56,801 bases of DNA from Planctomycetia bacterium (GCA_046074725.1 JBJTOU010000200.1:1-56801), one strand, 5' to 3'. Shown: positions 1,528-31,060, counted from the stretch's first letter. A program made the numbers and translations. The notes: generated by a model not told the origin, from the sequence alone.

Positions 1528-1677
1528 TCACGGGAGGGGGTGCCCATGCCCCAGGAGCCGGCGTATGCAGACAAGCGAAGCAAGGATTGCGGAGCGCGGT
1601 CTGCATCCGAGTGAGCGAAGGACAGGATGTCCGGAGTGAACGTCCGGCGATGGGGCGTGGGCAGCCCCGACCCGCGA
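1528..1677 (+). ncRNA. Structured dispersed element, copy 1 (double GGA-hairpin multi-stem motif)
   Basis: Long terminal stem, inner stem ATGCAGAC/GTCTGCAT, hairpins GCA-AGGAT-TGC and GGAC-AGGAT-GTCC. Homologous to the copies at 24577 and 30921. Confidence 0.7.
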
Positions 1678-1724
1678 GACGGGCAGCTTCCGTTGAGACC
1701 CCTCAAAAACTGCAAAAGTCGAAT

Positions 1725-2312
1725 CTAGCCGGATTGTGACCTCTTGAGTCGCTCGACCTCGGCCTCGAGCGATTCGACCCGCTGCTCGAGCTCCTCGAAT
1801 CGCGCCTTGGCTTTTTCAAGCCGCTCCCTCATCTCCTCGCGGGCATGCTGCATCCGCTGATGCATCATCTCGCGCATCTCCGGAGGCATCCCACCTCGCA
1901 TGCCGTCCGGTGGGCCGCCCCACTCCGGCCGCTCGCCGTGATGCGGGCGATGGGGGGGGCCGCCGTGATGATCGCCCCTCGGTGGCCCGCTCTCGCCCCT
2001 CGGGGGCCCGCTCTCGCCCCTCGGGGGCCCGCCCTCGCCCCTTGGGGGCCGGCCCTCGCCCCTTGGGGGCCGGCCCTCGTGCGGCCCGTCCCCCCGGTCG
2101 CCGTGGGGCGGACCTTCGCGGCCCATCCGCCCATCCAGCCGGTTGAGTAGACGATCGAGTTTGTCGGCCAAGCGATCGATCTTATCGCCGATATCGGCCG
2201 GCCGCGTGTACGAAGGCTCTTCCGAGGCCGTCACCATGTTGACCCGGCCGATCACCGCGATCAGGCCGATGCCACAGGCGGCCACGGCCAGCCATTGTGC
2301 GAGACGTTTCAT
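1725..2312 (-). CDS. Exported or membrane-anchored hypothetical protein with Gly/Pro/Arg-rich repeats and C-terminal coiled coil
   Basis: Start re-called at MKRLAQWLAVAACGIG (SD CAGGAG). Hydrophobic N-terminus, low-complexity centre, coiled-coil-like C-terminus. Confidence 0.75.
   Translation of the reverse strand: MKRLAQWLAVAACGIGLIAVIGRVNMVTASEEPSYTRPADIGDKIDRLADKLDRLLNRLDGRMGREGPPHGDRGDGPHEGRPPRGEGRPPRGEGGPPRGESGPPRGESGPPRGDHHGGPPHRPHHGERPEWGGPPDGMRGGMPPEMREMMHQRMQHAREEMRERLEKAKARFEELEQRVESLEAEVERLKRSQSG
1972..2076. repeat. Intragenic 21-bp tandem repeat x5 (TCGCCCCTYGGGGGCCSGCYC)
   Basis: Five near-identical adjacent units encoding E(G/S)(R/G)PPRG heptads on the minus strand. Confidence 0.9.
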
Positions 2313-2370
2313 GGGAATCTCCTGGAGGGGAACGTATTCTGACACCGATAGAAACGCCCCTGCGACCATA

Positions 2371-3261
2371 ATGTTTCGCGACCCGTCGCTCGTCGATTTC
2401 GGCTCCGACGCCTCCGCCCGAGGAGGCGGCCAGGGCCGGCGGCTGGAGTTGCTGGGCGGCATCCTCGTCGACCGGCCGCTCGCCCACGACGGCATGCCGC
2501 CACGGGGGATGCCTGAGCAGTGGCGGGCCGCCGGCGCGACCTTCGTCGATTCCGGCGGTGGCTGGACGTTTGCCTCCCCACCTCCCGACCCATGGCGGGT
2601 GCGGGTGCCGCTGGAAGAAACCGCCGCTGCGAAGGCGATTGAGCTGGAGGTTCGACCGGCGCCGTCCGGCCAGACGGGCCTGTTCCTCGAGCAGGTGCCG
2701 CAGTGGCGTTGGCTCTTTGAATCGACGCCATCCGGTGCCCGCGTGCTCTCGCTCTTCGCCCACTCAGGCGCCGCCACGCTCGCCCTCACGGCCGCCGGTG
2801 CGGAAGTGACCCATGTCGATGCCTCGAAGCAGGCGACGGCGATGGCCCGTCGGAATGCCGTCGCCTCAGACCTCGATGCCGCCCCGATCCGCTGGATCTG
2901 CGATGATGCGCGTGCCTTCGTGGCCCGCGAAGTGCGTCGGGGCACGGCCTATGACGGCGTGGTGCTCGATCCACCCTCGTGGGGCCACGGATCGAAGGGA
3001 CAGGCGTTTTCCATCGACCGCGATCTGCTGCCACTGCTGGAAGGGATCGGCCTGCTGCTCGCTTCGGCCAGTCGAACGACGGGCATCGGGCCGGTGCTGC
3101 TCACCTGCCACTCGCCCGGCTGGCATCATCGCCGCCTCCACGACACACTGACTGCGACGCTCGGCTTCGACCGATGTGAGTCGGGCCGACTCACCTGCAC
3201 CGATGCCTCGGGCCGGTCGCTCGCCCTGGGCGACTACGCGCGGCACACCCACCCTCGATGA
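2371..3261 (+). CDS. Class I SAM-dependent methyltransferase (RlmI/RlmK-like)
   Basis: QTGLFLEQ, VLSLFAHSG, VTHVDAS and YDGVVLDPPSWG motifs. Confidence 0.85.
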   Translation: MFRDPSLVDFGSDASARGGGQGRRLELLGGILVDRPLAHDGMPPRGMPEQWRAAGATFVDSGGGWTFASPPPDPWRVRVPLEETAAAKAIELEVRPAPSGQTGLFLEQVPQWRWLFESTPSGARVLSLFAHSGAATLALTAAGAEVTHVDASKQATAMARRNAVASDLDAAPIRWICDDARAFVAREVRRGTAYDGVVLDPPSWGHGSKGQAFSIDRDLLPLLEGIGLLLASASRTTGIGPVLLTCHSPGWHHRRLHDTLTATLGFDRCESGRLTCTDASGRSLALGDYARHTHPR

Positions 3262-4100
3262 CGCACTCCGAACGGATCACGAGCCCTTCCAATCCACGGG
3301 TGCGGGGAGCGGCGAGACTGCGCGAGGCCGATGCACGCCGGGAGTCGGGGCTCACGCTCGTCGATGGCCGCCGCGAACTCTCGCGGGCGTTCGCCGCCGG
3401 CATCGAGGTCGTCGACATCTTTCTCGATGGCGACAGCGGCGACGATGCCGAACGCGAACCATGGCTCGACGACTGTGCGGCTCGCGGAGCGCGGGTCGTG
3501 GAAGTCCCGCGGAATGTGTTTGAAAAAATCGCCTTCGGCAGCCGCAACGAAGGGCTGGTGGGAGTGGTGCGGTTCGCGGCCCAGCCGCTCGACGGCTTTC
3601 GGGCGGCGGCAGGCCGACCGGTGCTCGTGGCCGAGGGCGTCGAGAAGCCGGGCAACCTCGGGGCCATCCTGCGCACCGCCGATGCCGCTGGCATCGCGGG
3701 CGTGATCGCCTGCGGCCCCGGCACCGATCCGGCCAATCCCGCCTGCATCCGCGCAAGCCTCGGCGCCGTGTTCAGTGTTCCGCTGGCCGTCGCGACATCG
3801 GAGGCCGCGATCGACTGGTGCCACGACCAGAGACGCCGCGTGATGGCCGCGGTCCCCGATGGCGACACGCTCTGGCACGAATCGACGCTCTCGGGCGACA
3901 CCGCGATCGTGCTCGGCAGCGAGGCACACGGCCTCTCCACCCTGTGGCGCGAAGCGGCGGCAGCGGGGCGGATCTCACTGCATACCGTCCGATTGCCGAT
4001 GCTTGGCATCACCGACAGCCTGAACGTCTCGGTCACGGCGGCCATCCTGTCCTACGAAGCCCTGCGGCAGGGCACCCATCGATCGCCGGAAACGCCATGA
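3258..4100 (+). CDS. TrmH/SpoU family RNA 2'-O-methyltransferase
   Basis: [26 protein letters not shown] and [19 protein letters not shown] motifs. ATGA overlap with the upstream gene. Confidence 0.93.
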
Positions 4101-4189
4101 CCGTGGAGTCGGCGGGCCATCGAGCCCCAGACAGCCCGTCGCCGACAGAAATCTGCAGGAATACGATGCCCTTCCGAGGAGATCCCGCG

Positions 4190-4837
4190 ATGGAGCAACG
4201 AACGACCCACGACCGCAAGGAATACCTTCATGGCTCGCTCGACGAGGCCTCCGTCGATCGCGACCCCATCGGTCAGTTCGCCGCCTGGTACGACGCGGCC
4301 CGCGCCGCGGGCGTGCCGGAGCCCGAGGCGATGACACTCTCCACGGCGACGTGCGACGGACAGCCCTCGGCCCGGATCGTGCTCCTCCGCAGTTTCGATG
4401 CCCGTGGCTTCTGCTTCTTCACCAACTACGACAGCCGCAAGGGGCGGGAACTGGAGGCGAACCCACTCGCCGCCCTCACCTTCCACTGGGCTGAACTCGA
4501 ACGGCAGGTCCGCATCGAGGGCCGCGTGGAGAAGACGAGCGCAGCCGAGAGCGACGCCTACTTCCAGAGCCGCCCGCGTGGCTCGCGGATCGGTGCCTGG
4601 AGTTCACCGCAGAGCGCGGTGCTCCCCGACCGGCATGCGCTCGAGGATCTCTTCGCCAGGTTCCATGCCGAACATCCCGACGACACCGCGATCCCGCGAC
4701 CGGATCACTGGGGCGGCTACCGGCTCGTGCCTGAGCGAATCGAATTCTGGCAAGGCCGCCCCAGCCGCCTTCACGACCGGCTGCGATTCCGCCGCGGCGC
4801 TGATGGTGGGTGGGCGATCGAGCGACTGGCCCCCTGA
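4190..4837 (+). CDS. pdxH: Pyridoxamine 5'-phosphate oxidase
   Basis: [38 protein letters not shown] and [21 protein letters not shown]. Confidence 0.96.
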
Positions 4838-4946
4838 ATTCGGCCAGATCGCGGCGGTCATCGGACGGCTCAGCCCATCTTGACGCTGGCCGCCGATCTC
4901 TTCATTGTTCCGCGGATTTCTTCCCGCTTTCGAGGATCGACCCGCC

Positions 4947-6428
4947 ATGCCGACAGCGAGGCCGATTGCTTCCGCGCTGATCACCGCCGCCATCTGCGCC
5001 GCCGCATGCGCCGCGGAGCATGAAGCCGCTCGGCTGCCATGCACCGTTCCGGTCGTTCGTGACCACGCCTATCTGCGGGCGGGACCGAGCGACGATTTCT
5101 ACCCGACGGAGCGGCTCGTGCGCGGCGACACGCTCGAGGTGTGGGCCATCGATCCGGCCGGCTTCTGCGCCGTACGTCCCGTGACTGGCAGTTTCAGCTG
5201 GATGCGGGCCGACGACCTCGCCGACGGCTCGGTGTTTCGGGATACGGCCGACGGACGCCGCATCCCGACAGGACGGTTCACCGGCGTCGTGGCCACCGAC
5301 GGGGCCGTCTCGCGTGTCGGCTCGCAGCTCAATGATCTCCGTCACGTCGCCCAAGTTCGGCTGGAGGCAGGCGAGCGGGTGCAGGTGCTCGAGACGGTGA
5401 CGATTGACGCCGGCAGACATGCCGGACATTGGGCGAGAATCGAACCACCATCGGGAGAATATCGTTGGGCGCGGGCGACCGACCTCGGTCTCCCGCCGGA
5501 ACTCGCGCCACCACCGCCCGTGGCACCGCCGTCGGAAGCCGAGACGGCCGCCGCCGCAGCCGAGGCCACGGCGGCGATTCGTGAAGCTGGCGATGCCGTG
5601 GCGAGGGTCATCGCCACCGCGGGCGAGGCCGCCCCACACGCGTCGGGCGAAAGCACGCCGTCCACCGACACCGCTCCGCCGCAGCCGCTCGGCGCGGTGC
5701 CGATGGCGAAGCGTCTCTTCGCCGGCTGGCTGCCGCTTGGCAGCGGCGTACTCGACCCGACGACCCCCGCCGCCCCGGTCGCCGTGAGCACCGGCGCAGT
5801 GGCGGCGTCGGCCCATGAACTGGCCGACATCGATCTGTCGCTTTCGCTGGCGGTCGCCGGTCCGAGCGATGCCTGGAACCTCGAGCCGCTTCGTGAGCGG
5901 CTGCGACTGGCCGCGGCCCGGACCACCACGCAGGAGGAGCGAATGCGGGCCGAGGCGATCGATGCCCGGCTCTCGCGGTTCGAATCGATCCAGGCCCGGC
6001 AGCGGGCCATCGCCTCGGGGGGCGAAAGTGACCCGTCAATGTTGCGGCTGGGCAGCATGTGGTCGAGCATGTCGACGATCGGATCGCGTCCGATCCGTCC
6101 CGGCGTGCTTCCGGGCGGCGCCCCTGCGGACGGTCAGCCAACCTGGACCCCGCCGGAAGCCATGGAGGCGACCGGCCGGCTTGCGACCGTCGTGTCGCGA
6201 CGGCCCGACGCCCCGCGGTGGGCCGTCGTCGATGAGAGCAACAACGTCGTCGCATTCGTCACGCCCTCGCCCGGCGTGAACCTCGCGCCCCTGGTGGGCC
6301 AACAGGTCGCCGTGCGCGGCGCGAAAGGCTACATGCCCGAGTACAAGCGTCCCTACATGGTCGCCTCCGAAGCGCGGCCTCGCTTGGCTGCCACGCCACC
6401 CGCAGCCAACGACGCCATCCGGCAGTGA
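4947..6428 (+). CDS. Secreted protein with N-terminal SH3b-like domains
   Basis: Signal peptide, YLRAGPSDDFYPTERLVRGDTLEV and a second WARIEPP SH3-like segment, Pro/Ala linker. Confidence 0.7.
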   Translation: MPTARPIASALITAAICAAACAAEHEAARLPCTVPVVRDHAYLRAGPSDDFYPTERLVRGDTLEVWAIDPAGFCAVRPVTGSFSWMRADDLADGSVFRDTADGRRIPTGRFTGVVATDGAVSRVGSQLNDLRHVAQVRLEAGERVQVLETVTIDAGRHAGHWARIEPPSGEYRWARATDLGLPPELAPPPPVAPPSEAETAAAAAEATAAIREAGDAVARVIATAGEAAPHASGESTPSTDTAPPQPLGAVPMAKRLFAGWLPLGSGVLDPTTPAAPVAVSTGAVAASAHELADIDLSLSLAVAGPSDAWNLEPLRERLRLAAARTTTQEERMRAEAIDARLSRFESIQARQRAIASGGESDPSMLRLGSMWSSMSTIGSRPIRPGVLPGGAPADGQPTWTPPEAMEATGRLATVVSRRPDAPRWAVVDESNNVVAFVTPSPGVNLAPLVGQQVAVRGAKGYMPEYKRPYMVASEARPRLAATPPAANDAIRQ

Positions 6429-6479
6429 TGCCTCGCGAAAGTCGGCGACCCGACACGATAGACGGTAACCCGCGGCGTG

Positions 6480-7385
6480 CTACCGTGCCGCCGGCTGCCA
6501 CCGGGCGGCGAGTTCGGTCTGCACCGTGACATCGTCGCCGGCAGCGGCCCGTTGGACCCCTCCCTCGCCGATGCTCCGAGCAATGTCGGCGAGAGACTGT
6601 TTGTCGCCCGGCGCGGTCCGCGGCAGCCTTCCGGCCAGCCGGGCGACGCCATCTGGGTTGGCCTCGGCGGCCCTCGACAGGCTCGCCATGAAGATGCATA
6701 TCTCGCTGAAATTCGACGCCGCGGAGCGGACGATCAACGGCTGGAGCGTGCGAGTGACGACCTCCAGCCCGACGCCATCCATGTCGAGGAAGGCGTCGAT
6801 GTCGATCCGCTGGAGCGCACGGCCATCGGCCGCAGAGCCGGCGGGTGTGTGCCTGACGAGCAGCACGCACGACCCGGTAAGCATGCGAGGCGAGAGCGGA
6901 CCGGTATAGGCGCCGCGGCCATGGAAGACAAGCGTGCCACGGCGGCCATCGTGCTCGTGATGCACAAGCCGCAGGACGCCGACCGTGCCGTAGCCGTCGT
7001 CGAGTCGCCATTGTTGCGGACCCACGGGGTCGAGCGAGAGGCGGCTGATGCCGAGCACCCGCCACAGATCGACGATCGCCTCGGGGTTGTGCAGTGAGAA
7101 GGCGAGCAGGTCGCCATCGCACGGAAATGTCTTCGTCGGCAGGTGCCGGTAGAGCGTCGTCGTCTGGAGGCATTTTTCCACGGTGTGCCGCTGCGCGGCA
7201 TTCATGCGTTCCAGCGGCATCGCCTCGATCGCCGCCCGGCGGGCATCGCGCCCCGACGAACCGCCATCGGACATGAGCGCCGCGACGGAACCTGCCGAGA
7301 TCTCCTGCTCCGCGGCCCGGCCATCGATCGCCAAGCACAGGATCCCGATGCCGGCAGCCACGGCCGGCCACATACGAAACGTCAT
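6480..7385 (-). CDS. Secreted hypothetical protein
   Basis: Signal-like N-terminus (MWPAVAAGIGILCLA), globular composition, fills the gap between neighbouring genes. Start uncertain. Confidence 0.7.
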   Translation of the reverse strand: MTFRMWPAVAAGIGILCLAIDGRAAEQEISAGSVAALMSDGGSSGRDARRAAIEAMPLERMNAAQRHTVEKCLQTTTLYRHLPTKTFPCDGDLLAFSLHNPEAIVDLWRVLGISRLSLDPVGPQQWRLDDGYGTVGVLRLVHHEHDGRRGTLVFHGRGAYTGPLSPRMLTGSCVLLVRHTPAGSAADGRALQRIDIDAFLDMDGVGLEVVTRTLQPLIVRSAASNFSEICIFMASLSRAAEANPDGVARLAGRLPRTAPGDKQSLADIARSIGEGGVQRAAAGDDVTVQTELAARWQPAAR

Positions 7386-7627
7386 AGAGAAAGCCCCCCG
7401 GATCGACACCCCTCACCGGCGGCCCATCGGGGTGCCGGCTGGGAAGGTTTTTCGGCGCGTGCGGGATGCTCGGGCCAGTCATTTCCGTCAGGTTTTCCTG
7501 GCACCCCCCCAGACTCCCTCCCTTGCCACGTCTCCTGACAGCGTGGGTTGGCCCCGCTCCGCATGTTTTCTACGATCTCCCCCCCGCGAACGGCCGCCAT
7601 GGAAGGCGGCGCGCGATCGGAAGAGCG

Positions 7628-21330: not shown

Positions 21331-23210
21331 TGGATGGATGGCGAAACGGCACGTCGCGGAGGCTCCTTGGAGCGGCGATCGGTTGTGCGGCGACCATTGC
21401 CGCCCGGCCGGCGGTGGCCGAGGGATGGCCGGCGATCGCACCGGCCGAGTTCTCGCGCGGCGCCGGCGGCGGTCTGGCGATCATCCCGGTCGCCTGCTGG
21501 TGGCTCCTGACGCTCGGATGGGTCTTCACCACCGACTGGCTTTCGCGGGACAGCGTCCGCCGCGGATTCGCCCCGGCGGTCTGGGGGCCGGTCGCGGCCC
21601 TTTCCTTTCCGATCCTGGCGCTGATCGCCTGGTGGATTCCGTGGACGTGGGCGGCCTTGGTGCTCACGACCCTGGCATGGCTGGTGCCCGTGTTGTCCTA
21701 CGTCTTCACCCGCAATCCCAAGGTGCACGGCTCCGAGCGAGTCCTCACGGTGGGCCACGTGAAGCGACTCGTGGCGCCTCTGTTCGAGCGGTTCGGCGTG
21801 GAAATCGAGACGATGGACGACACGGGGGACGACCTGCTGCCGACGGTGCACATTCGGACCACGGCAGGTGGCGACCCACACTCCGATCCTTCGGTGATGG
21901 AGCGGCTGACCACCGCGGCCGCGGCCATCAGCAAGGCGCTTGCCGATCCCAACCGGATCAACGAGGGCTACACGGCGGCCTGTGGCGTCATGCAAGGAGC
22001 GGTGGCTGCGCGTGCCGGGCGGATCCGGCTCGACGTCGCGCCCAGCGCGGTGAACCTGCACCACTTCCTGGATGGGATCTGGCTGAAGCCGCGGGTGATG
22101 ACGGCCCGCGGGTCGAAGAAGCTGCCGGAACAGTGGGCCGATGCACCGCCGCTCGCTCGCCCCGCGGCGGACACTGTGATCGTCATCCTCAAGGGAATGG
22201 CCGGCATCGACGCCCGCCGCAAGGGACCGCAGCGGGGTTCCTTTCTGATCGATGTCGATGGGAAGCCGCGGCCATGCACATTGGTCGTGCAAACGGCTCC
22301 GACCGGAGAGCACGTTGAGATCGAGATCGATTCGAAGCCCGCGTCGATGAAGGGCTGTGCCGACATCGGCATGCCCCCAGCGTTGATCGACCGCCTCTCC
22401 GAACTGCTGGGGCTCGAGAAGGGGGTGCTGCTGCTCTCCTCGCCTCCCGCCTCGGGGCTCTCCACGACGTTCGACATCGTCGTGGGAATGACCGATCGCC
22501 TGATGCGCGACTTCATTTCGATCGAAGACGCGGCCGCGCCGGCAGTCGAGATTCAGAACGTCAAGCCGATCCGCTACGACACAAAGGCGGAGCAGACGCC
22601 GCTTTCGGTGCTCGCCAAGGCCCTCCTCGATTATCCGGCGGCGGTCATCACGCGCGACCTGCGTGAGCCCGCGCTCGGGGTCGAACTCGTCCGACTCGCC
22701 GACGAGGAGAAGTTCGTCGTCATCAGTCTCAAGGGGTCCGACGCCATCGACGCGATATCACGGCTCGTCGGCTGCAAGGTGCCGACCGACCAACTCGGCC
22801 GCAGCCTGCTCGGCTCGCTTTCGCAGCGGCTGGTGCGGAAGCTGTGCCCGAAATGCCGGACGGGGGTTCAGCCGTCGCCGAAACAGCTGACACTCCTCAA
22901 AAAGAAGCCCGAGCAGCTTCAGCAGATCTTTCGCGCATCACAGCAAGGCTGCCGTCTCTGCCACGGCCACGGCTACCTCGGCCGTACCGCCGTCTTCGAA
23001 CTCGCCTCCGGCCCCACCGTTCGGAAGGCGATCGCCGCGAAGGCCGATCCGCAGACGATCCGCAAGGCGGCGATCCAGGATGGGATGGTGACGCTGCAGG
23101 ATGCCGCGCTGGCGCTGGTCTCCGAGGGTGTGATATCTTTCGAGGAAGTGCAGCGGGTGTTCGCCGCGCCCGCGGTCAAAAAGCCGGCAAACGGAGGGGC
23201 ACGATCATGA
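21327..23210 (+). CDS. Membrane-anchored PilB/GspE-like protein with degenerate ATPase motifs
   Basis: N-terminal TM helices, C-terminal QRLVRKLCPKC...CRLCHGHGYLGRTAVFE. Walker A reads SPPASGLST. Confidence 0.85.
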   Translation: MMDGWRNGTSRRLLGAAIGCAATIAARPAVAEGWPAIAPAEFSRGAGGGLAIIPVACWWLLTLGWVFTTDWLSRDSVRRGFAPAVWGPVAALSFPILALIAWWIPWTWAALVLTTLAWLVPVLSYVFTRNPKVHGSERVLTVGHVKRLVAPLFERFGVEIETMDDTGDDLLPTVHIRTTAGGDPHSDPSVMERLTTAAAAISKALADPNRINEGYTAACGVMQGAVAARAGRIRLDVAPSAVNLHHFLDGIWLKPRVMTARGSKKLPEQWADAPPLARPAADTVIVILKGMAGIDARRKGPQRGSFLIDVDGKPRPCTLVVQTAPTGEHVEIEIDSKPASMKGCADIGMPPALIDRLSELLGLEKGVLLLSSPPASGLSTTFDIVVGMTDRLMRDFISIEDAAAPAVEIQNVKPIRYDTKAEQTPLSVLAKALLDYPAAVITRDLREPALGVELVRLADEEKFVVISLKGSDAIDAISRLVGCKVPTDQLGRSLLGSLSQRLVRKLCPKCRTGVQPSPKQLTLLKKKPEQLQQIFRASQQGCRLCHGHGYLGRTAVFELASGPTVRKAIAAKADPQTIRKAAIQDGMVTLQDAALALVSEGVISFEEVQRVFAAPAVKKPANGGARS

Positions 23211-23788
23211 TCACCCTGCTCCTGCTCGGCGTGCTGGTCGCGACAGCCGGCCTCTTCTTTCGCGATGGCCTTTGGACCGCGCTGGTGGCCGTGGCCAACG
23301 TGCTTCTCGCCGCTACGCTCGCCACGGCATGGTACGAGTGGCCCGCGGGACTCCTGGAGCAGGCCCTCCCTTCGATCGGCTCCTTCGCCGATTTCCTCTG
23401 CATTTGGCTTCTGTTCGCGGCCATTCTCGGCGCCGCAGGTGAAGCGACCATCCGCATGTCGCGGACGCGGGTGATGTTCCCCGGCCACGTCGATCGTTGT
23501 GGCGCTCCCATCGCGGGGCTCATCGCCGGGTGGATCATGGTCTGCTTCACGGCGATGACGCTCCACCTCGCGCCCGTCACCCGAGACCTCATTCAGCCCA
23601 CCCCCGAGTCGCGGCTCTTTCTGGGCTTCGCCCCCGACCGCACATGGGTGAGCTTCATGCGACACGCCACCCGCCGAGGTCCGTTTTCCAACCCCGGCGA
23701 GGACGAGGCCAACGTGTTCGACAAGGGCGAGGATTTCATCGTGCGGCATGCAGATCGTCGCAAGAAGCTCGAGGGAGGATCGCCATAG
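23207..23788 (+). CDS. CvpA-like membrane protein
   Basis: About 4 TM helices, RDGLW...A(T)AWYEW and DRCGAPIAGLIAG pattern. ATGA overlap. Confidence 0.7.
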   Translation: MITLLLLGVLVATAGLFFRDGLWTALVAVANVLLAATLATAWYEWPAGLLEQALPSIGSFADFLCIWLLFAAILGAAGEATIRMSRTRVMFPGHVDRCGAPIAGLIAGWIMVCFTAMTLHLAPVTRDLIQPTPESRLFLGFAPDRTWVSFMRHATRRGPFSNPGEDEANVFDKGEDFIVRHADRRKKLEGGSP

Positions 23789-24408
23789 TGGAAAGCCTCA
23801 TGAGTTCGCCGCCTGAAGATTCGGGCGGCTATCGACCCGTCAGCGCGGTCGCGGTGGCGGCCCTCGTGGCGGGGATCATCTCGGCGGCGTCGCTGGTAAG
23901 CCCCTTCTTTTGGGTCCTGCCTTTGATCGCCATCGGCCTCGCCTGGCTGGGGCTGGCCGATGTGTCCCGTCCAGGCGGGGAGAAGGCCGGCCGAGCGGCG
24001 GCCCTCATCGGCCTGGCGCTCGCGATCGGCTTCGGCGCCCAGGCGGTGTCATCGACGGCGGCGCGTCATTGGATCTTGTCGTCGCGGGCACGCTCGGCAG
24101 CGCTGCTGTGGGTTGAAGCCCTGCGGGAAGGCCGGATCGACGACGCCAAAAACATGTGCCTGGCCGGCGCCGTGAACCAGCTCGAGCAGTTCTCCACGAG
24201 GCTCACAGCCTGCGGGGCTGGAAGCAAAGCCCACACAGCGGATGTCGGCCGCAACGACGAAATACCGGAACAGTGGCTGGTGCACGTCGTCGTTGAGCCA
24301 TGCCCATCCGGCTCCATCGATCTCGATGTCCACGTCGCATCGGAGTTGGCCACCGGCCAGGAAGGCCGGCTCGAACGCTGGAAAGTAGTGAAGTGTGACT
24401 CGCGATGA
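23788..24408 (+). CDS. Membrane protein (DUF4190-like N-terminus)
   Basis: YRPVSAVAVAALVAG...GRAAALIGLAL TM pattern. TAGTG coupling; alternative ATG at 23800. Confidence 0.7.
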   Translation: MESLMSSPPEDSGGYRPVSAVAVAALVAGIISAASLVSPFFWVLPLIAIGLAWLGLADVSRPGGEKAGRAAALIGLALAIGFGAQAVSSTAARHWILSSRARSAALLWVEALREGRIDDAKNMCLAGAVNQLEQFSTRLTACGAGSKAHTADVGRNDEIPEQWLVHVVVEPCPSGSIDLDVHVASELATGQEGRLERWKVVKCDSR

Positions 24409-24457
24409 GTTCTCGCGTTTCTCCGATCCACAAGGCACTCGATAGGACGGCCCGGCT

Positions 24458-24523
24458 TCGGGGGCGGTGAACGCCTCAGCTTCGAAGGGCGAGGATACGC
24501 CCACTCGCCTCGACGTCCCCCGA
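24458..24523 (+). repeat. Small stem-enclosed element carrying a GGA-loop hairpin (GGGCG-AGGATA-CGCCC)
   Basis: Outer TCGGGGG/CCCCCGA pair. Inner hairpin at 24487-24502 is preceded by CGAA, as in the main element. Confidence 0.5.
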
Positions 24524-24576
24524 CCCCCTGCGCCTTCCACAGGTTCGTTCTTGAATATGGTTCGCGGATCCAGCGA

Positions 24577-24708
24577 GGGGCCGCCCATGCCCTGGAGCCG
24601 GCGTAGGTGGCCAGCGCAGCCCGGAGGGCGAGAGCGCAGCCACCTCCGAGTAAGCGAAGGGCATGGATGCCCGTAGCGAACGTCCGGCGAGAGGGCGTGG
24701 GCAGCCCC
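24577..24708 (+). ncRNA. Structured dispersed element, copy 2
   Basis: Same scaffold as copy 1 with inner stem AGGTGGC/GCCACCT and hairpins GCCC-GGA-GGGC and GGGC-ATGGAT-GCCC. Confidence 0.7.
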
Positions 24709-24716
24709 GAGCCGCG

Positions 24717-25688
24717 TCAGGCGTCATCAGACGAAAAGGGGCGGATGGCGTCGATCGAATCGGTGCCGGCAGCGAGCATGACGAGCCGGTCGAAGCCGAG
24801 CGCCGCACCGATGCCGTCGGGCATCCCGACCCCATGGGCGTCGAGGAGCCGGGCCGGAATTGGAAGCCGGCTGCGGCCGTCAGCGACGCGGACCCTGTTG
24901 GCGGCGTCGATCCGATCAGCGAGCACATCGCGGCTCGTCTCTTCCTCCCAGCCATTGGCAAGTTCCACCCCCTCGACGAACAGTTCGAACCGTCGGGCCT
25001 GCCGCCGATCGGCGTGGTCGAGTCGTGCTAACGCCGCCTGCGAGGCGGGCCAGGCCTCGAGCATCGCCGGCCTGCCTCGGCCAAGATTCGGCTGCACGAC
25101 CTCCGCCAGCAATGCCTCGAACCAGCGGTCCCAAAGCGCCGCCCGCGCCGCATCGTCGGCGGGCCGGGCATGATGCGACTCCGGCAGGCGAAGGCCAGCC
25201 CGCCGGCCGGCCGCCATCAGTTCCTCGAGTGTGGACGAAAGGGGGTCGACGGCAGCATGGGCGGCGAAGGCATCGGCGCATGACACCCGTTCGATGCCCG
25301 AGGTGCCGAGCGTGGCGGCACAGAGCCGTTCGAGAATCGTCGCCGTCTCGTCGAGGCCGGTGCCCGGGGCGTACCACTCCAGCAGCACGAACTCGAGGTC
25401 GTGCTGCCGGCCCCGCTCACCGGCACGGAAGGAGCGGGCGAACTGGTAAATCGGGCCCGCGCCGGCCGCCAGCAGCCGCTTCATGAGCGCCTCGGGGCTC
25501 GCCTGCAGGTAGCGCGGCGGCAGGTGGGGGCCACCGACGTGGACGGCCATCGGGTCGATGTGCGCTTCGGGCAGCACCTCCGACGAGATCGTGGGCGTAT
25601 CGACCTCCACGAACCCGGCTCGGTCGAAGACATCGCGAATCCGCGACCGCATCGTGGCACGAAACTCGAGCATCGGTCGTGTCGACAT
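24717..25688 (-). CDS. epmA: EF-P lysine aminoacylase (EpmA/GenX)
   Basis: FVEVDTP, YLQASPEALMKRLLAAG, ARRFELFVEGVELANG and GAALGFDRLVM; LysRS catalytic domain only. Confidence 0.92.
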   Translation of the reverse strand: MSTRPMLEFRATMRSRIRDVFDRAGFVEVDTPTISSEVLPEAHIDPMAVHVGGPHLPPRYLQASPEALMKRLLAAGAGPIYQFARSFRAGERGRQHDLEFVLLEWYAPGTGLDETATILERLCAATLGTSGIERVSCADAFAAHAAVDPLSSTLEELMAAGRRAGLRLPESHHARPADDAARAALWDRWFEALLAEVVQPNLGRGRPAMLEAWPASQAALARLDHADRRQARRFELFVEGVELANGWEEETSRDVLADRIDAANRVRVADGRSRLPIPARLLDAHGVGMPDGIGAALGFDRLVMLAAGTDSIDAIRPFSSDDA

Positions 25689-25735
25689 GAAGTGTCCTTG
25701 CGCGGCCGTGCGATGAGGCATCGGCCGTCACTCGA

Positions 25736-26197
25736 TCAGAGCGAGAGCGCCGGTTTCTTGGCCGAGAGTTTTTCGGCCGTCTCACGGTAGATGAGCACCG
25801 GGCAGGGCGCCCGCCTCACGATCGCCTCCGCCACGCTTCCCATGAGGAGCCGCATCATGCCCGTCCGACCATGCGTGCCGAGCACGATCATGTCGGCCTT
25901 CTCTTCGTGGGCGATACGGATGACTTCGGAGGCCGGATCGCCCATCGTGAGCCGGTGCGCGAAGGGAATCGCGTGATCGGCGGGCTTGACGTCTTCGAGC
26001 ATCGCGAGAATCCGCTCCGAACTCGGCTCGGGGATGCCGTAATAGAGTTCACCCCCGCCGTAGGCCAGCGGCGGCTCCTCGACGTGCACGATCAGGAGTC
26101 TTGCGGCCATCGACTTGGCCAGCGCCTCGGCATGCGCCAGCGCGGCATCGCTGGCGAGCGAGAAATCGGTCGGGAAGAGAATCGTTTTCTGTGCCAT
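25736..26197 (-). CDS. Universal stress protein
   Basis: ILFPTDFS and DMIVLGTHGRTG..RLLMGSVAEAIVRRAPCPVL. Confidence 0.95.
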   Translation of the reverse strand: MAQKTILFPTDFSLASDAALAHAEALAKSMAARLLIVHVEEPPLAYGGGELYYGIPEPSSERILAMLEDVKPADHAIPFAHRLTMGDPASEVIRIAHEEKADMIVLGTHGRTGMMRLLMGSVAEAIVRRAPCPVLIYRETAEKLSAKKPALSL

Positions 26198-26286
26198 CGC
26201 AGGTACTCCGGTGGAGAAGGCATCCTCGCACGGAAACGTCCATCCGTCGCAATCCTACCGGCTCGTGGGTCCTGCTGTCCGATCAA

Positions 26287-28371
26287 TCAATGCAGCCGCA
26301 TGCCCGGAAGGGCACCCGAATCGGGGGAAAGCAGAAAGACACCTGGGCTGCCGGCGCCGCTGGCGGCCACCACCATCCCTTCGCTGAGTCCGAACTTCAT
26401 CTGCCGCGGCGCGAGGTTTGCAACCACGACGACGAGCCGGCCGACCAGTGCCCCCGGCTCGTGAAAACCCTTGATGCCGGCGAACACGGTGCGGATCGTG
26501 TCGCCACCGAGGCTCACTGTGAGCTTGAGCAATTTCTTCGCCTCGGGCACCTCCTCCGCGGCGGTGATCCGCGCAACGCGGAGATCGACTTTCCCAAAGT
26601 CGTCGATGGTGCACTCGGGTGCGAGCGGTTCGGCGGCAAGCGGCTCGGCCGGGTCGGCATGGGGACCAGTCATGGCGGTGGATCCTTTCTGTGAGGACGA
26701 CGGGAACATGTCTTGCTCTGGCCGGGACGCGGCAAGCATGGATTCGATCTGGGGCGGCTCGACCCGCCGCATGAGCGGAACGAAGGCGGCGACGGGAAGG
26801 CCGGCCAGGGGACGCTGCGACTCGTCCCACGAGCGGATCGGGCCACCGACAAGGCGGCCCGCCTGTTCCGCGAGGCCGGGAAGCACCGGCGCGAGGAAGA
26901 TGGCGATCTGTCGAAAGAGATTGATCGCGACGCTCACCACGTCTCGGAGCCTGGATGCAGCGTCGGGCCCGGCCTTGGCGAGCTTCCACGGCTGCTCGGC
27001 ATCGACGTAGGCATTGGCCCGATCGGCGGCGAGCATGATCGTCCGCATCGCACGGGCGAAATCGCATGCCTCATACGCCGCCGCGATCTCCTCGCCTTCG
27101 GCGGCGGCACGGGCGAACAGACCGCCATCGTCGGGATAACCGGGGGCGAGCCCTGTGGCTTCGAGCCAGCGGGCGGTACGGCTGGCAAGGTTCACCACCT
27201 TGCCGACGAGGTCGGCGTTGACCTTCGTGGCGAACTCCTCGAGGTTGAGGTCGATGTCGTCGATGCCGCCGGAGAGTTTGCTGGCGTAGTAGTAGCGGAG
27301 CGCGGAGGGATCGAGGTGTTCGAGGTAGGTCCGCGCCAGCAGGAACGTTCCTCGGCTCTTCGACATCTTCTGACCGTTGACCGTCAGGAAGCCGTGGATG
27401 CGGACCTTCGTCGGAAGGGAAAGCCCCGCCGCCTCGAGCATCGCCGGCCAGAAGAGCGTGTGGAAGTAGGTGATGTCCTTGCCGATGAAGTGATGGATCT
27501 CAGCGGGCGGATCGTTGGCGGAGCCCCGGTGCCACCAGGCGGAAAGGCTCTCGCCATGGACCTCGCACCACTCGCTCGTGGCGGCGATGTAGCCGATGGG
27601 GGCGTCGAACCAGACGTACCAGAAATGCCCGGGCGCATCGGGAATCTCGAAACCGAAATAGGGGGCCGGCCTGGAGACGTCCCAGTCGCGGAGCGACTCG
27701 CCCAGGAAGTGGCCGGCGAGATAGTTGGCGATCCGCGGATCGAGCGCGGCGGACGATCTGGTCCACTCGTCGAGGAACCTGTGCAGTGATTCAATCGTCA
27801 CGAACAGATGCTCGGACGACCGCAGCTCCGGCGTCGCTCCCGACAGCGTGCTCCTCGGATTCACGAGGTCGGTCGGGGCGTAGGTGGCGCCGCACTGCTC
27901 GCAGGAGTCGCCGTATTGATCGGCCGCGGCGCACCTCGGACAGCCCCCGCGAACGAATCGGTCGGCGAGGAAGACACCCGCCTGCGGGTCGTAGAGCTGC
28001 TGCACCTGCCGCGCGACGATGAGCCCGCGGTCGTGGAGGGCCTTCCAGATCTCGCCGCACAGTCTGCGGTTGGCAGGGCTGTCGGTCGAGCCGTAGTGGT
28101 CAAACTCGATCTGGAAACCGGCGAAGTCCGCGAGGTGGGCCCCCCGCATCGCCGCGATCAACTCCTGCTCGCTGCGACCTTCGGCCCTCGCCCGGATCAT
28201 GATCGCCGTACCGTGGGTGTCGTCCGCGCACAGGTAGATGGCCCGGTGGCCTCGGAGCTTCTGGAAGCGGACGAAGATGTCGGTCTGGATGTACTCGACG
28301 AGATGCCCGAGGTGGATGTGGCCGTTGGCGTAGGGCAGGGCCGAGGTGACGAGAATGCGGCGTGCAGGCAT
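26287..28371 (-). CDS. metG: Methionine--tRNA ligase
   Basis: [14 protein letters not shown] (HIGH), Zn knuckle CPRC..CEQC, KMSKS, C-terminal tRNA-binding OB domain. Confidence 0.98.
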
Positions 28372-28378
28372 GGGCCGG

Positions 28379-28384
28379 ATTGTA
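28379..28384 (-). promoter_or_regulatory. -10 box TACAAT, 7 nt upstream of the metG ATG (likely leaderless)
   Basis: Minus strand reads TACAAT-CCGGCCC-ATG; no SD. Confidence 0.55.
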
Positions 28385-28531
28385 TGAACCCGCGCGAAAA
28401 GGGGGAAACGGTGTGGAAATGGGGGCAACGAGGCAAGCCGGTGGATGTCGAGCCGGTGGCGAAAGTGATCTTGTGGTGGTGCGGCGCCCCCGGCACCATC
28501 CGCCCCCTCGCAACCGACTTCGGAGTCTTGG

Positions 28532-30238
28532 ATGATCATCGCACGACGAGCGGCCACGTGCGGCCTGTTGGCAGTCGCCTGCTGGGTGGCAGCGATCCCC
28601 GGCGCCTGTGCCGATCCGCTCCGCAACACCAGGCCTTCCGACACCGCCATGGCTGCGGTCCAGGCGGCCACTCAGGGCGAGGTGGTACTCCTCGACTTCG
28701 CCGCCTCCTGGTGCGGCCCGTGCCGACAGATGGCGCCGATCATCGGTGAAATCACGGCGGCCGGATGGGTGGTGCGGCATGTCGATGTCGACCGTGAACC
28801 GAATCTCGTTAAGCGATTCGGAGTGACCGGGGTTCCCTGCTACGTGCTGCTGGTTCAGGGGGAGGAAGTGGGGCGGGTGAACGGTGCGACGACCCGCGCC
28901 GACCTGGAACACTTGCTGGCCAAGAGCCGCCAACCGCTCGGCCTGCCAGCGGTGCCCGTCGCCGCGGCCCCGGCGGGGCCGACGATTGCTCCCGTCCCCG
29001 GCATCACACTCCCCGCCACCACACCGACCGCCCCACTGGCCACCGAACCGCCCGCCGAACGACAGGCGATCCCCGAGGCGATCGTTCGAGTGCCGTCGCC
29101 GCCGGCCAAGGCGGCCCCCACGGCGACCGCTCGCGAGGCCGTGGCCCCGGCCCGTGCGGAGACCCCGGGCCCGACGCGAGGGACCGATCCGCGGGAACGC
29201 GTCGCATTCGAGCAGAAGCTCCTACAGGCGACCGCGAGATTGCGGGTCGATGATACACAGGGCATGTCGCGGGGCACCGGAACGGTCATCGACTGCAGAC
29301 AGGGCGAGGCACTCATCCTCACCTGCGGCCACATCTTCCGCGACTCGGGCGGCAAGGGGCGAATCGAAGTCGATCTCTTCGGATCCCACGGACCGCGAGG
29401 CGTGGCGGGGCAGCTGGTGGCCTATGACCTGAAGCGTGATCTGGCACTCATCAGCATCTTTACCGATCAGCCGATCGAACCGGTTCGAGTCGGCGGCGCC
29501 GACTGCGACATGAAGGCCGGTGAGCCGGTGGTGACGGTGGGCTGCAACGGCGGGGACGATCCGACGTTTCACTACAGCAGGATCAACGGCACCGACAAGT
29601 ACCTCGGGCCCGCCAACGTGCAAGTCGCCGGGCAGCCGGTCCAAGGCCGCAGCGGCGGCGGCCTCTTCGGCCTCGACGGCACGCTGATCGGTGTCTGCAA
29701 CGCCGCCGATCCGGCCGACAACGAGGGCCTCTTCGCCGCGCTGCCCGCGATTCACGAGCAACTCGACGAGGCGGGGCTGGCGTTCGTCTATCGCAGCGTC
29801 TATCCGAGCGGTGGCGTGGCGGGGGGAGCAGCCGATCACGCCGCCATGCCGTCGATGCCTGAGGAGATGCCGAAGGTGGCATTCGACCGACGCGACCGGG
29901 CCGACGCGGTTCCGACCGCCTCGACGGCGGCCGATCGTACGACGCCCGTCACCGCCGATCCACGAACGGCAATCCAGCAACCGTCTTCGGGGCATCCTTC
30001 AGGGCAGCTCTCCAGCGGCGAGGAGGCGCTGCTGCAGCATGTCCGCCAGCACGAGGGGAAGGCCGAGGTGATCTGCATCGTTCGCCCGCATGGAGCGCCG
30101 CAGGGGGCCAGCGAGGTCTTCGTCCTTCAAAACGCCAGCCGCGAGTTCCTCGACGAACTCTCCCGCACCCACCTCGGTGCGGCCACCCGGCCCGACGAAA
30201 CCACGGCGAGCCTCCCTGCCGCGAAACCGTCGCGATGA
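28532..30238 (+). CDS. Secreted thioredoxin plus trypsin-like serine protease fusion
   Basis: WCGPC thioredoxin, Pro-rich linker, protease triad motifs LTCGH, RDLAL and QGRSGG. Confidence 0.85.
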
Positions 30239-30251
30239 TGCCACGCCGACC

Positions 30252-30902
30252 GTGAAACAGCTGCAATACCTGATCCGGCACGGTGAAAGCGTCTCCAACC
30301 TCGAAGGCCGGGTGCAGGGTCAAGAGGACGTCGAGCTTTCCTCGCTCGGCCAACGTCAGGCCGTGGCCGTCGCCTCGTGGAGCATATCCATGTTCCATGG
30401 CGACACCTCGACGATCGAAGAGATCTGGTCGAGCCCCCTTCGCCGCGCCCGGGACACCGCCGCCCCGATCGCGGAAGCCCTCGGACTGCCTCTGAGGATC
30501 GATGATCGGCTGCGCGAACTGCATGCCGGCGTCTTTCAAGGTCATCTCTGGGCCGACCTCGAGTCGCGGTTTCCCGAAGCGGTGGCCCGCTGGCGGAGCG
30601 GCGACGCCGACTATTGCATCCCCGGGGGTGAATCGAGGGCGGCTCTTGCCGCTCGTGGCCGAGAGGCGTTGGAATCGCTCGCGGCTCGTCCGGTGCGGGG
30701 CATGATCGTCGTCGCCCACGGCGGCATCCTCACCGCGGCCCTGGGCAGCCTCGTGGGCCGCACGCATCCCCTGCTCGCCGCCGCGGCCGAGCGGCCGTTC
30801 ACAAAACTCCCCGCGCTCTCCAATGGCTCGATCACGCTGGTCGAGTGGCCCGGGCCGTCGCTCGTGTCGTTCAACGAAACGACCCACCTCGAGAACCGGT
30901 AA
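30252..30902 (+). CDS. Histidine phosphatase (phosphoglycerate mutase family)
   Basis: LIRHGES, SSPLRRARDTA, LRELHAG, PGGES and VVAHGG. GTG start inferred. Confidence 0.92.
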   Translation: MKQLQYLIRHGESVSNLEGRVQGQEDVELSSLGQRQAVAVASWSISMFHGDTSTIEEIWSSPLRRARDTAAPIAEALGLPLRIDDRLRELHAGVFQGHLWADLESRFPEAVARWRSGDADYCIPGGESRAALAARGREALESLAARPVRGMIVVAHGGILTAALGSLVGRTHPLLAAAAERPFTKLPALSNGSITLVEWPGPSLVSFNETTHLENR

Positions 30903-30920
30903 TGTCGAGTTATCCGTCGA

Positions 30921-31060
30921 GCCAGGGGCTGCCCGTGCCCCGAGAGCCGGCGTTTCTGACAAGCGTAGGCAGGGATGCCGGAGCGCAGTCAGCATCGAGG
31001 GAACGAAGGCCTGGAGGGCCGTAGTGAACGTCCGGCGACGGGGCACGGGCAGCCCCTGGC
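30921..31060 (+). ncRNA. Structured dispersed element, copy 3
   Basis: Perfect 22-bp terminal inverted repeat (30921-30942/31039-31060), inner CTGAC/GTCAG, hairpins GGCA-GGGA-TGCC and GGCC-TGGAG-GGCC. Confidence 0.72.

Follow-up and report, generated by a model that had tools for sequence, protein, structure and literature searches.

ERIC/IRU and Correia elements are family-restricted, imperfect palindromes of 100-160 nt which lie in transcribed intergenic regions in either orientation and fold as RNA hairpins affecting mRNA fate; Correia elements also have TA duplications and DDE-type terminal inverted repeats. Neither group is known to show skew polarity. Palindrome-associated elements derived from IS200/IS605 move as single-stranded DNA by "peel and paste" and show a replication-related orientation bias. 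The RNAs of the CsrB/RsmZ type carry many GGA sites each and are encoded by one gene or a few, each under a regulated promoter of its own, and the TwoAYGGAY RNA motif of Rfam consists of two hairpins with a GGA-centred hexamer in the loops. According to PMC3733652, REPs are high-copy extragenic palindromes that follow genes, chiefly in the spacers of tandem or convergent ORFs, often form inverted dimers, have no target duplication and are thought to act as single strands.

The window analysed here, a stretch of 56,801 nt from a Planctomycetia bacterium (GCA_046074725.1, JBJTOU010000200.1), holds three members of one structured repeat family with a core of about 142 nt (Table 1). A preliminary description had placed three copies with one shared scaffold at these positions, in agreement with our letter-by-letter check and with a mean column identity of 76% in a MAFFT alignment of the three. 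The terminal stem GCCGGCGT/ACGTCCGGC, the inner stems (ATGCAGAC/GTCTGCAT, AGGTGGC/GCCACCT and CTGAC/GTCAG), the hairpin stems with their six GGA-containing loops, and ACAGGATGT at 1622-1630 all read as it had given them. An outer 17-bp stem, P1 (GGGGGTGCCCATGCCCC/GGGGCGTGGGCAGCCCC), had not been listed there and lies inside the coordinates it gave. In the flank information profile conservation begins 4 nt before GGGG and stops 4-5 nt after CCCC, and information in the upstream flank is near 0, so that no conserved promoter region is seen.

Table 1. Positions of the three copies, their parts and neighbouring genes in the window.
Feature	Position	Strand	Remark
Copy 1, conserved core	1532..1673	+	R1 match, 154 bits (model match 1524-1681)
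Copy 1, P1 5' arm GGGGGTGCCCATGCCCC	1536..1552	+	Pairs with 1652-1668
Copy 1, P1 3' arm GGGGCGTGGGCAGCCCC	1652..1668	+	Pairs with 1536-1552
Copy 1, P2 box 5' strand GCCGGCGT	1557..1564	+	Invariant sequence, no covariation
Copy 1, P2 box 3' strand ACG-T-CCGGC	1640..1648	+	One bulged T
Copy 1, arm A	1565..1606	+	Inner stem ATGCAGAC/GTCTGCAT, GC clamp, GAA/GGA internal loop, hairpin 1
Copy 1, arm A apical GGA	1584-1586	+	GGA invariant in 29/29 aligned copies
Copy 1, three-way-junction linker (C)CGAGTGA	1607..1614	+	Conserved, single-stranded
Copy 1, arm B	1615..1637	+	GC/GT clamp, GAA/GGA internal loop, hairpin 2 GGACA-GGA-TGTCC
Copy 1, arm B apical GGA	1625-1627	+	Within CAGGATG
Copy 2	24573..24713	+	R1 match, 130.3 bits (model match 24565-24721)
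Copy 2, P2	24597-24604 / 24680-24688	+	
Copy 2, apical GGA	24623-24625, 24665-24667	+	
Class II aaRS-like gene	24717-25721	-	Pfam; stop overlapped by 3' model flank of copy 2
Copy 3	30921..31060	+	R1 match, 158.4 bits (model match 30913-31069)
Copy 3, P2	30946-30953 / 31028-31036	+	
Copy 3, apical GGA	30973-30975, 31013-31015	+	
Copy 3 flank, His_Phos_1	30090-30902	+	Pfam
Copy 3 flank, Peptidase_M28	31158-32090	+	Pfam

The family is much larger than these three copies. The scan with covariance model R1, an approach proposed in the preliminary description, gave 94 matches in G000, the 2.85-Mb genome to which the window belongs (E<=1e-3; 150 of 3154 candidates scored), where BLAST finds 73 near-full-length copies, and model matches number 92 in the relative G005 and 114 in G014. 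The element has reached about 90-115 copies per genome of 3-4 Mb. The comparison with Rfam 15 gave no family: there were no matches at the gathering threshold across the whole window, and none overlapping copies 1-3 at E<=10. Plasmid, phage and viral-contig sequences did not match the element either.

On one strand, termed the sense strand, the predicted fold starts with the outer stem P1, which has tandem G.A mismatches at its foot, followed by the invariant P2 box (GCCGGCGT/ACG-U-CCGGC) and a three-way junction. Both arms of the junction contain an internal loop of the symmetric form G-N-A/G-N-A and end in a short GGA-capped hairpin. Over 29 copies aligned with MAFFT, 97.8% of the cells in the 42 predicted pairs are paired, compared with 88.3% in shuffles and 31-43% in slid-register controls, and 28 of the 42 pairs show compensatory change on both sides, a count reached by none of 500 shuffles. 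This supports the earlier claim that the stems differ in sequence while pairing is kept. In the same copies compensatory change affects 15 of the 17 pairs of P1 and none of the eight pairs of P2, and the P2 box is conserved to at least 90-97% in 117 copies from other genomes. The proposed strand asymmetry of G-U-tolerant changes is in line with 35 G-U cells against 4 A-C/C-A cells in the predicted pairs, and with a sense strand that is the more stable of the two in 73 of 77 copies under RNA parameters and in 76 of 77 under DNA parameters (mean energies of the two strands with RNA parameters, -85 and -77 kcal/mol). The description as a module spread as a repeat, structured on one strand and bearing two hairpins with GGA caps is borne out. 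Terminal inverted repeats are present, the arms of P1 and P2 together making up an imperfect one of about 29 nt. The GTAG/GGAG tetranucleotides described at the hairpin feet did not hold up: the feet read G-N-A-G with any N, and there is thus no GTAG tag. An intrinsic (Rho-independent) terminator was also considered and rejected, since the GC-rich hairpin is not followed by a T-run in copies 1-3; the 3' flanks of the family have no conserved T.

The preliminary description regarded the element as a distributed CsrA sponge or 3'-UTR CsrA tag, in which about 90 copies would together titrate or recruit CsrA, the two GGA hairpins about 40 nt apart in sense transcripts being bridgeable by one CsrA dimer. 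The parts of this reading that stand are the presence of csrA and the retention of GGA. Genome G000 has four csrA paralogues (PF02599 matches) and csrA is present in 41 of 41 relatives, while GGA is kept in loop 1 of 114 and loop 2 of 105 of the 117 copies from other genomes, as had been expected of further copies; loop 1 reads TGGA after an A in 42 of the 117, and loop 2 ATGGAT in 9. In RNA form, as CAGGAUG, the motif CAGGATG is the repeat unit of CsrB and the core of the SELEX consensus for CsrA. Of 83 G000 copies, 47 contain it in sense and none in antisense, and 57 of its 636 genomic occurrences fall in elements, which cover 0.48% of bases. The strand-specific fold and a co-oriented upstream gene in 54 of 77 copies also speak for the reading. 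However, relatives that lack the element keep an equal number of csrA genes, and the P2 box, not the loops, is the most invariant part. We consider a CsrA sponge or tag unlikely, also in view of the gene contexts and the polarity described below. It is similarly doubtful that the element supplies, as a mobile, self-spreading CsrA-binding module, an RNA arm otherwise missing from the expanded Csr system of the Pirellulales. If it did, the sense copies in mRNA 3' ends would together amount to about 100-200 high-affinity CAGGAUG hairpins per cell, and CsrA availability would be set by genome-wide read-through transcription instead of by one regulated sponge gene.

The element occupies the 3' flanks of genes regardless of the direction of the neighbour and shuns divergent (promoter) spacers. 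Both flanking genes were called for 70 copies with a simple caller of our own (82% coding), and these copies divide into 33 convergent, 15 tandem-sense, 18 tandem-antisense and 4 divergent contexts, three antisense cases being upheld by Pfam. Orientation relative to transcription is therefore mixed, an outcome of the sort that the preliminary description had listed as counting against its reading, and the claim that all copies lie downstream of + strand genes is correct for the three copies of the window, by Pfam, but not for the family. Within 100 nt, antisense gene ends (37) outnumber sense ones (24; n=68). Copies in antisense context are no less intact than those in sense context (median 135.9 vs 129.1 bits, p=0.68), so that quality is independent of context. 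The mixed tandem contexts, the excess of antisense gene ends and the intact antisense copies all count against a CsrA function.

The same placement could point to a 3'-end module selected by the host. By stopping transcription in both directions or blocking 3' exonucleases, as has been suggested for REP and ERIC, the long GC-rich hairpin would insulate densely packed genes and be retained for that reason. The enrichment of convergent and depletion of divergent spacers, element ends that often lie about 30 nt or less from stop codons on either side, and the strong folding of both strands are consistent with such a role, as is the equal placement of REPs (PMC3733652). Yet neither the invariant P2 box nor the GNA/GNA and GGA loops are needed for a plain barrier, any tolerated insertion would likewise be expected to avoid promoter spacers, and the lack of a T-run in copies 1-3, the loss of copies without replacement in close relatives, the skew polarity and the head-to-head dimers are left unexplained or argue against it. 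This function is in our judgement improbable.

Orientation tracks local GC skew rather than the neighbouring genes. The sense strand is the C-rich strand in 56 of 82 G000 copies and, at |skew| of 0.02 or more, in 30 of 38, and this polarity is seen in every gene context. On a 189-kb contig of G014 copy orientation switches where the skew switches, and on a 204-kb contig of the same genome 7 of 7 copies have one orientation. Skew is a DNA-level variable, which is a further point against a CsrA sponge. Close pairs are head-to-head (5 in G000, 7 in G005 and 10 in other genomes) apart from one tandem pair, and none is tail-to-tail. The skew dependence, together with the invariant P2 half-sites, might suggest a polar chromosomal site acting at the DNA level, structured or bound sequence-specifically by a protein and related to replication (fork processing, priming or chromosome organisation). 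Against such a site, the polarity is just about 70-80%, members of the family vary from 1 to more than 100 copies with none at all in 18 of 121 genomes, copies drift and are deleted, and the placement rule concerns gene ends; we regard this explanation as very unlikely.

Copy presence differs between genomes that are 93% identical. The sites of 30 G005 copies compared with G000 were filled in 9 cases, empty in 4 and without a call in 17; of the window copies, G005 lacks copy 2 and has copy 3 at the respective orthologous sites, and one site common to both genomes holds different subfamilies. Copies erode through microhomology deletions at the hairpin base, with CCCG and CCCCGA microhomology at the junctions of missing copies, and truncated remnants exist. 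Resident copies drift at about the intergenic rate, orthologous copies differing at 8.5-10.1% of sites, compared with an apparent intergenic divergence of 8.6%, 13.5% at codon position 3 and 2-3% at positions 1-2; this too is unfavourable to a CsrA sponge. A search of 73 copies for flanking direct repeats of 3-8 nt found none at any consistent offset. Nor did the filled/empty comparisons show a clean empty site; the empty sites there resemble deletions and not pre-insertion states, so that it is copy number, subfamilies and patchy distribution which point to transposition.

The search for a RAYT/IS200-like transposase, which the preliminary description had proposed, found none in G000: this 95% complete genome has no matches to Y1 transposase (PF01797), TnpB (PF07282) or reverse transcriptase (PF00078). 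PF01797 was not found in G014, G022 and G024 either, which like G000 carry between 53 and more than 100 copies, and its presence in 9 of 24 family relatives is uncorrelated with that of the element; among relatives, none of the three enzymes follows the element's distribution. In G000 no gene was seen enclosed by two element ends, as in a full-length parent IS, and partial copies are truncated remnants; MAGs often contain no assembled IS. Two established classes fit only in part. A RAYT-mobilised REP or REPIN proper does not fit a core that is too long and branched, the lack of a GTAG/CGTC tag and the lack of Y1 in G000, and a DDE-derived MITE would match the terminal inverted repeats but not the lack of a fixed-length target-site duplication in 73 copies.

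Of 121 genomes of the host's family, 103 carry the element (61 of 70 high-quality genomes), very unevenly in copy number and patchily even inside one genus (g3, 6 of 18 genomes positive); none of 16 further families in the order has it. A scan of 185,579 species with a sequence pattern returns freshwater MAGs labelled Planctomycetota. The same scan also returned one contig from a MAG labelled Chitinophagaceae. The consensus is nearly identical over 11 genera, which could also mean a function at host level.

Overall, and with moderate confidence, we favour the view that the element is a structured interspersed repeat of the REP/ERIC/Correia class in uncultured freshwater Pirellulales, family-specific, non-coding, non-autonomous and mobile or recently mobile. 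Its spread would depend on the sense strand in a single-stranded state, as DNA or as RNA, with the P2 box and the GGA-capped arms presumably read by a trans-acting factor, and the compensatory changes would reflect selection on lineages that are still multiplying and not on each resident copy. The skew polarity may come from strand-specific insertion, or from faster loss when the stabler strand is on the lagging-strand template. A transcript that includes a copy in sense would gain a very stable 3' hairpin and two putative CsrA-type sites, probably as a side effect and not as the raison d'etre of the family. Counting against a mobile repeat is that no mobilising enzyme was found in G000, and that the purine-loop three-way junction is more elaborate than known recognition hairpins of REP or IS200 type. 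It is tempting to speculate that the element may be the substrate of a new strand-specific mobilising enzyme.

Compared with the described systems, some loops of the element read ATGGAT like those of the TwoAYGGAY motif, which differs in phylum and lacks the long terminal stems, the three-way junction and the high copy number. With CsrB/RsmZ the element shares GGA, often in CAGGAUG, in apical loops of short hairpins and two sites at bridging distance, but it is dispersed in about 90 copies of mixed orientation with two GGA sites each and no conserved promoter, and the Csr/Rsm models of Rfam do not match it. Strand-specific hairpin structure, orientation bias and absence of target duplication recall IS200/IS605, whereas no TnpA or TnpB was found in G000 and the strand that forms the structure is the C-rich one, a polarity opposite to IS608-type lagging-strand-template insertion provided that the usual G-rich-leading rule holds in this clade. 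ERIC/IRU and Correia elements resemble it in size, imperfect palindromy, intergenic position in either orientation, RNA hairpin folding and restriction to a family, but they lack a branched core that carries conserved purine loops and have no sequence similarity to the element in the Rfam, plasmid and phage searches, and the absence of target duplication separates it further from Correia. REPs are simple hairpins of 20-40 nt that bear a GTAG or CGTC tag and mostly have a matching Y1 transposase, unlike this element of about 142 nt with its three-way junction and G-N-A-G feet and with no PF01797 found in its genome. The likeness to REP/BIME/REPIN lies in an extragenic, gene-downstream position, frequent inverted dimers, the lack of a target duplication and a presumed action as single strands, and the element behaves more like a genomic repeat of REP/MITE type than like a dedicated CsrA-binding RNA gene.

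We lean towards reading the element as a structured interspersed repeat of the REP/ERIC/Correia kind, which fits the data better than a dedicated family of regulatory RNA genes. This reading draws on its high and uneven copy number, its subfamilies and its patchiness within genera, on copies gained and lost when close relatives are compared, neutral drift of copies in place and the lack of duplications, and on a position at gene ends whatever their direction, depletion from promoter spacers and the formation of inverted dimers. The three stretches of the preliminary description, seen there as covarying copies with two GGA hairpins each and read as a distributed CsrA sponge or 3'-UTR CsrA tag, are present and mutually similar in the window sequence and in alignment. 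The stems listed there were recovered, while each copy proved slightly larger, with a 17-bp outer stem (P1) lying outside them. P1 encloses the P2 stem GCCGGCGT/ACG-T-CCGGC, beyond which a three-way junction opens into two arms. In arm A an inner stem is followed by a GC clamp of two pairs, then by a symmetric 3x3 internal loop with G-N-A on each strand, and finally by a four-pair hairpin with a GGA cap; after the conserved linker CGAGTGA, arm B has a clamp, a G-N-A/G-N-A loop like that of arm A and its own hairpin, likewise capped by GGA. Tandem G.A mismatches lie at the foot of P1 and at the P1/P2 boundary. According to the flank information profile, the conserved unit runs from 4 nt 5' of GGGG to 4-5 nt 3' of CCCC, giving a core of ~142 nt.

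Positions of the element in the window, with gene contexts, and of a short hairpin insert in the host genome (C, contig)
Feature	Position	Strand	Position from	Gene context	Context from
Core, copy 1	1532-1673		flank information profile	downstream of flgM	Pfam
P1 of copy 1	1536-1552 with 1652-1668	+	paired stretches		
Core, copy 2	24573-24713		flank information profile	adjoins stop of minus-strand class II aminoacyl-tRNA-synthetase-like gene	Pfam
Core, copy 3	~30921-31060		flank information profile	downstream of histidine phosphatase gene	Pfam
~28-nt hairpin insert	C33:1801-1823				
~28-nt hairpin insert	C37:36798-36820				
~28-nt hairpin insert	C87:3149-3171				
~28-nt hairpin insert	C110:5042-5064				
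~28-nt hairpin insert	C11:13566-13588				

Several other identities were considered and rejected. A small ORF was set aside as every frame is broken by indels. Group II intron domain 5 came into question through the resemblance of the P2 box to GAGCC...ACGU...GG, and was discarded because P2 opens into a junction and the Rfam intron models gave no match to the copies. A known self-cleaving ribozyme was set aside for lack of an Rfam match, and an integron attC array in view of the scattering of copies among housekeeping genes in both orientations.

Twenty-nine copies aligned with MAFFT (A2) served to build a covariance model (R1), and scanning the host genome and its relatives with it, the check proposed in the preliminary description, uncovered many further copies. 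RNAalifold predicted 42 pairs in the 29 copies, 28 of them with compensatory changes. For this structure 97.8% of 1216 cells are paired, compared with 88.3% after shuffling; on none of five measures did any of 500 shuffles reach as high, and pairing fell to only 31-43% when the partner was slid by 1-3 columns. Free covariation is seen in P1, in the inner stem and in the stems of the two hairpins; P2 hardly varies in sequence and shows zero double changes. Cells with G-U (35) exceed those with A-C or C-A (4), and the sense strand, the one that folds, is the more stable in 73 of 77 copies with RNA parameters and in 76 of 77 with DNA parameters, so that the fold is a property of one strand. Strand-specific covariation and the unchanging P2 box indicate that something reads that strand in single-stranded form, and this reader may be the machinery of the element's own spread.

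The host genome (2.85 Mb in 226 contigs, 95% complete, 66.5% G+C) returned 42 matches in a similarity search and, by BLAST, 73 near-full-length copies plus fragments, while R1 matched at least 94 times among the best 150 of 3154 first-look candidates scored. R1 matches number at least 92 in G005, a close relative, and at least 114 in G014, which belongs to a different genus. Many of the BLAST copies lie at contig ends, and the element therefore breaks metagenome-assembled genomes (MAGs). Four freshwater metagenome runs had a summed contig depth over two window copies of ~10-60 times that of the flanks, with contigs ending there (24403-24703 and 30724-31325); the contigs of these runs yielded no clean junctions at the two copies. 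The element is thus abundant in the four sampled communities and breaks assemblies there. Among 40 relatives it occurs in 19 of 24 genomes of the same family and in 0 of 16 from other families of the order. A wider draw matched 103 of 121 family genomes (61 of the 70 high-quality ones; E<=1e-15) in 11 of the family's 12 genera, with copy numbers from one or few up to more than 100. Distribution is patchy even within one genus, where 6 of 18 genomes carry the element. The matches listed in an exact-pattern scan of bacteria and archaea (one genome per species) include freshwater MAGs, with the labels Planctomycetota, Pirellulales, Planctomycetia or Planctomycetaceae, some Candidatus Kuenenia or Planctomicrobium piriforme (both also Planctomycetota), and a single contig from a MAG with the label Chitinophagaceae. 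There was no match in plasmid and phage collections, and viral contigs gave 0 pattern matches. The comparison with Rfam foreseen in the preliminary description found no family matching the element: Rfam 15 at gathering thresholds gave zero matches over the whole window, and at E<=10 nothing overlapped the copies in searches of copy 1 and of 24500-31120.

Turnover was followed between the host genome and G005, whose flanking DNA is ~93% identical. Of 30 copies in G005, nine have a copy at the same place in the host, four do not, and 17 have flanks on different contigs; copy 3 of the window is common to both genomes, and copy 2 is absent from G005. The junctions in such filled/empty comparisons are not clean insertions. 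At one empty site the outermost stem persists, forming a small hairpin, and the joint has CCCG; in G005 the two sides of the copy 2 site meet at CCCCGA, with 52 nt of flank outside the element missing as well; and two further empty sites are larger replacements. Truncated remnants lie in other spacers. A scan for a target-site duplication in the flanks of 73 copies found no direct repeat at a consistent offset. Of 1571 aligned sites in orthologous copies, 159 differ (10.1%, or 8.5% when the replaced copy is left out), compared with an apparent intergenic divergence of 8.6%, 13.5% at third codon positions and 2-3% at first and second positions. Resident copies thus drift at approximately the neutral intergenic rate. 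One intergenic site (C211:3172-3329 in the host, locus L083 on G005:C277) holds different subfamilies in the two genomes, with 75% identity and different outer stems, which suggests replacement or re-insertion at one place.

The host has csrA, with four PF02599 matches, as the CsrA interpretation supposed. The gene was found in all 41 genomes searched, including element-free ones, with similar counts within the family. The GGA motif proved to be conserved well beyond the window: in copies from other genomes it is kept in 114 of 117 first loops and 105 of 117 second loops, most second loops without it having CGA. CAGGATG, a heptamer that forms the CsrB repeat and the core of the SELEX consensus for CsrA, is present in sense in 47 of 83 host copies and in antisense in 0, and 57 of its 636 genomic occurrences fall inside the element, which makes up 0.48% of bases. 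By their conservation and this enrichment the loops are good candidate CsrA sites. If transcripts of the element do bind CsrA, it would be the first CsrA sink of a dispersed kind and, for Planctomycetota, the first RNA partner of Csr. The CsrA tag also implied an orientation bias with respect to transcription, and the preliminary description itself counted a mixed orientation against the idea. Genes were called with a simple codon-usage caller trained on the host genome (82% coding), key cases being checked by Pfam. Called genes flank 70 of the 88 best matches on both sides, in these arrangements: 33 convergent, 15 tandem-sense, 18 tandem-antisense and 4 divergent. Three of the antisense tandem cases have Pfam-supported genes on both sides (aldolase/malate dehydrogenase, MoxR-like/VWA and MBL/HAD). 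Gene ends within 100 nt of the element face it in antisense more often than in sense (37 and 24 of 68), and the median R1 scores of sense and antisense tandem copies (129.1 and 135.9 bits) do not differ (p=0.68). Orientation to transcription is hence mixed, and we find it doubtful that the element serves as a CsrA sink and tag, a role compatible with a selfish origin. A barrier at 3' ends, selected by the host, is equally compatible with such an origin; it would go with the convergent contexts, and we consider it improbable.

In the window, a sigma-70-family factor (regions 2, 3 and 4; 3-821) and then a FlgM-like anti-sigma-28 ORF (1120-1407) lie directly upstream of copy 1, and the ORF at 28532-30238 has both a thioredoxin and a trypsin-like peptidase domain.

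A polarity is seen instead relative to GC skew. Skew was taken with the elements masked: in 56 of 82 host copies the sense strand coincides with the local C-rich strand, as it does in 30 of 38 where |skew| is at least 0.02. This holds in every gene context, and the genes hardly favour either strand (52.6% of coding bases on the G-rich one). In 15 of 21 cases, neighbouring copies separated by more than 400 nt have the same orientation. In G014, a 204-kb contig with positive skew has 7 of 7 copies on the minus strand, and on a 189-kb contig four copies before ~146 kb are minus and two beyond it plus, the cumulative skew turning there. By the general rule, applied to this clade too, the C-rich strand would be the lagging strand. 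The best DnaA-domain match in G014 (C75:56093-56545) lies 85 kb from the skew turning point of its contig, so dnaA does not mark a skew switch there; in the closed genome G035 the skew around dnaA matches is too noisy to give the leading-strand sign. The polarity is a DNA-level trait. It would fit a polar DNA site, an explanation that we rate as very unlikely. For an interspersed repeat, the polarity could come from strand-specific insertion, or else from preferential loss of copies with the more stable strand on the lagging-strand template, an effect reported for asymmetric palindromes in E. coli; such loss is expected to leave microhomology deletions of the kind found at the empty sites. Where assemblies are fragmented, polarity relative to skew offers a way to mark the direction of replication. 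Copies in close pairs almost always stand head-to-head, their 5' ends facing (5 in the host, 7 in G005 and 10 in loci of other genomes, against 1 tandem and 0 tail-to-tail pairs), some of the host and G005 pairs being probably orthologous to each other. Same-orientation tandem arrays with a period of ~297-298 nt and ~142-nt spacers occur at G014:C85:40706-41455, G014:C90:16545-16998 and in locus L118 (545-998).

The RAYT/IS200-like transposase suspected in the preliminary description did not materialize, PF01797 having no match in the host genome; its presence in relatives does not track the element. TnpB had no match in the host and 15 family relatives, and reverse transcriptase (RT) none in the host, G004 and G005, nor does RT track the element in relatives. 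The RT matches in G001 and G014 belong to group II introns interrupting element copies, plus one diversity-generating retroelement. The introns, with Rfam D1-D4 and D5-D6 matches and RT ORFs, lie in loci L244 (G001:C101, 2841-3195) and L239 (G014:C48, 1341-1489). In G001 the GTGCG 5' end follows directly after ...GGATGCCGAAG of arm A, in sense, and in G014 the 3' end adjoins an antisense copy cut within arm B, so that element copies seem to serve as intron landing sites in relatives. The retroelement cassette (L243, G014:C87, 1329-4960; FGE-sulfatase-fold target protein, bAvd and RT) is flanked by two head-to-head copies 3.3 kb apart. A ~28-nt hairpin insert, GGGCACCGATCCGCC-NNAG-GCGGATTGGTCG, occurs five times in the host, four times inside element copies, in sense, in arm A or the hairpin 2 loop; the fifth, whose left flank is similar, lies where a contig ends. 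It is also found in element copies of other genomes.

Overall, our data describe a covariation-supported structured element with thousands of copies across one family of abundant uncultured freshwater planctomycetes, new to the RNA and repeat libraries searched. It offers a natural system for asking by what means a branched fold of a single strand, invariant box included, multiplies in a genome without any known partner enzyme. A literature search on planctomycete REP, CsrA small-RNA and MITE reports gave no description of it, and the REP family tables of PMC3733652 might include planctomycete repeats. REPs are the nearest described systems: they match the element in placement and dimer habits, and differ from it in size, tag and transposase (PMC3733652).
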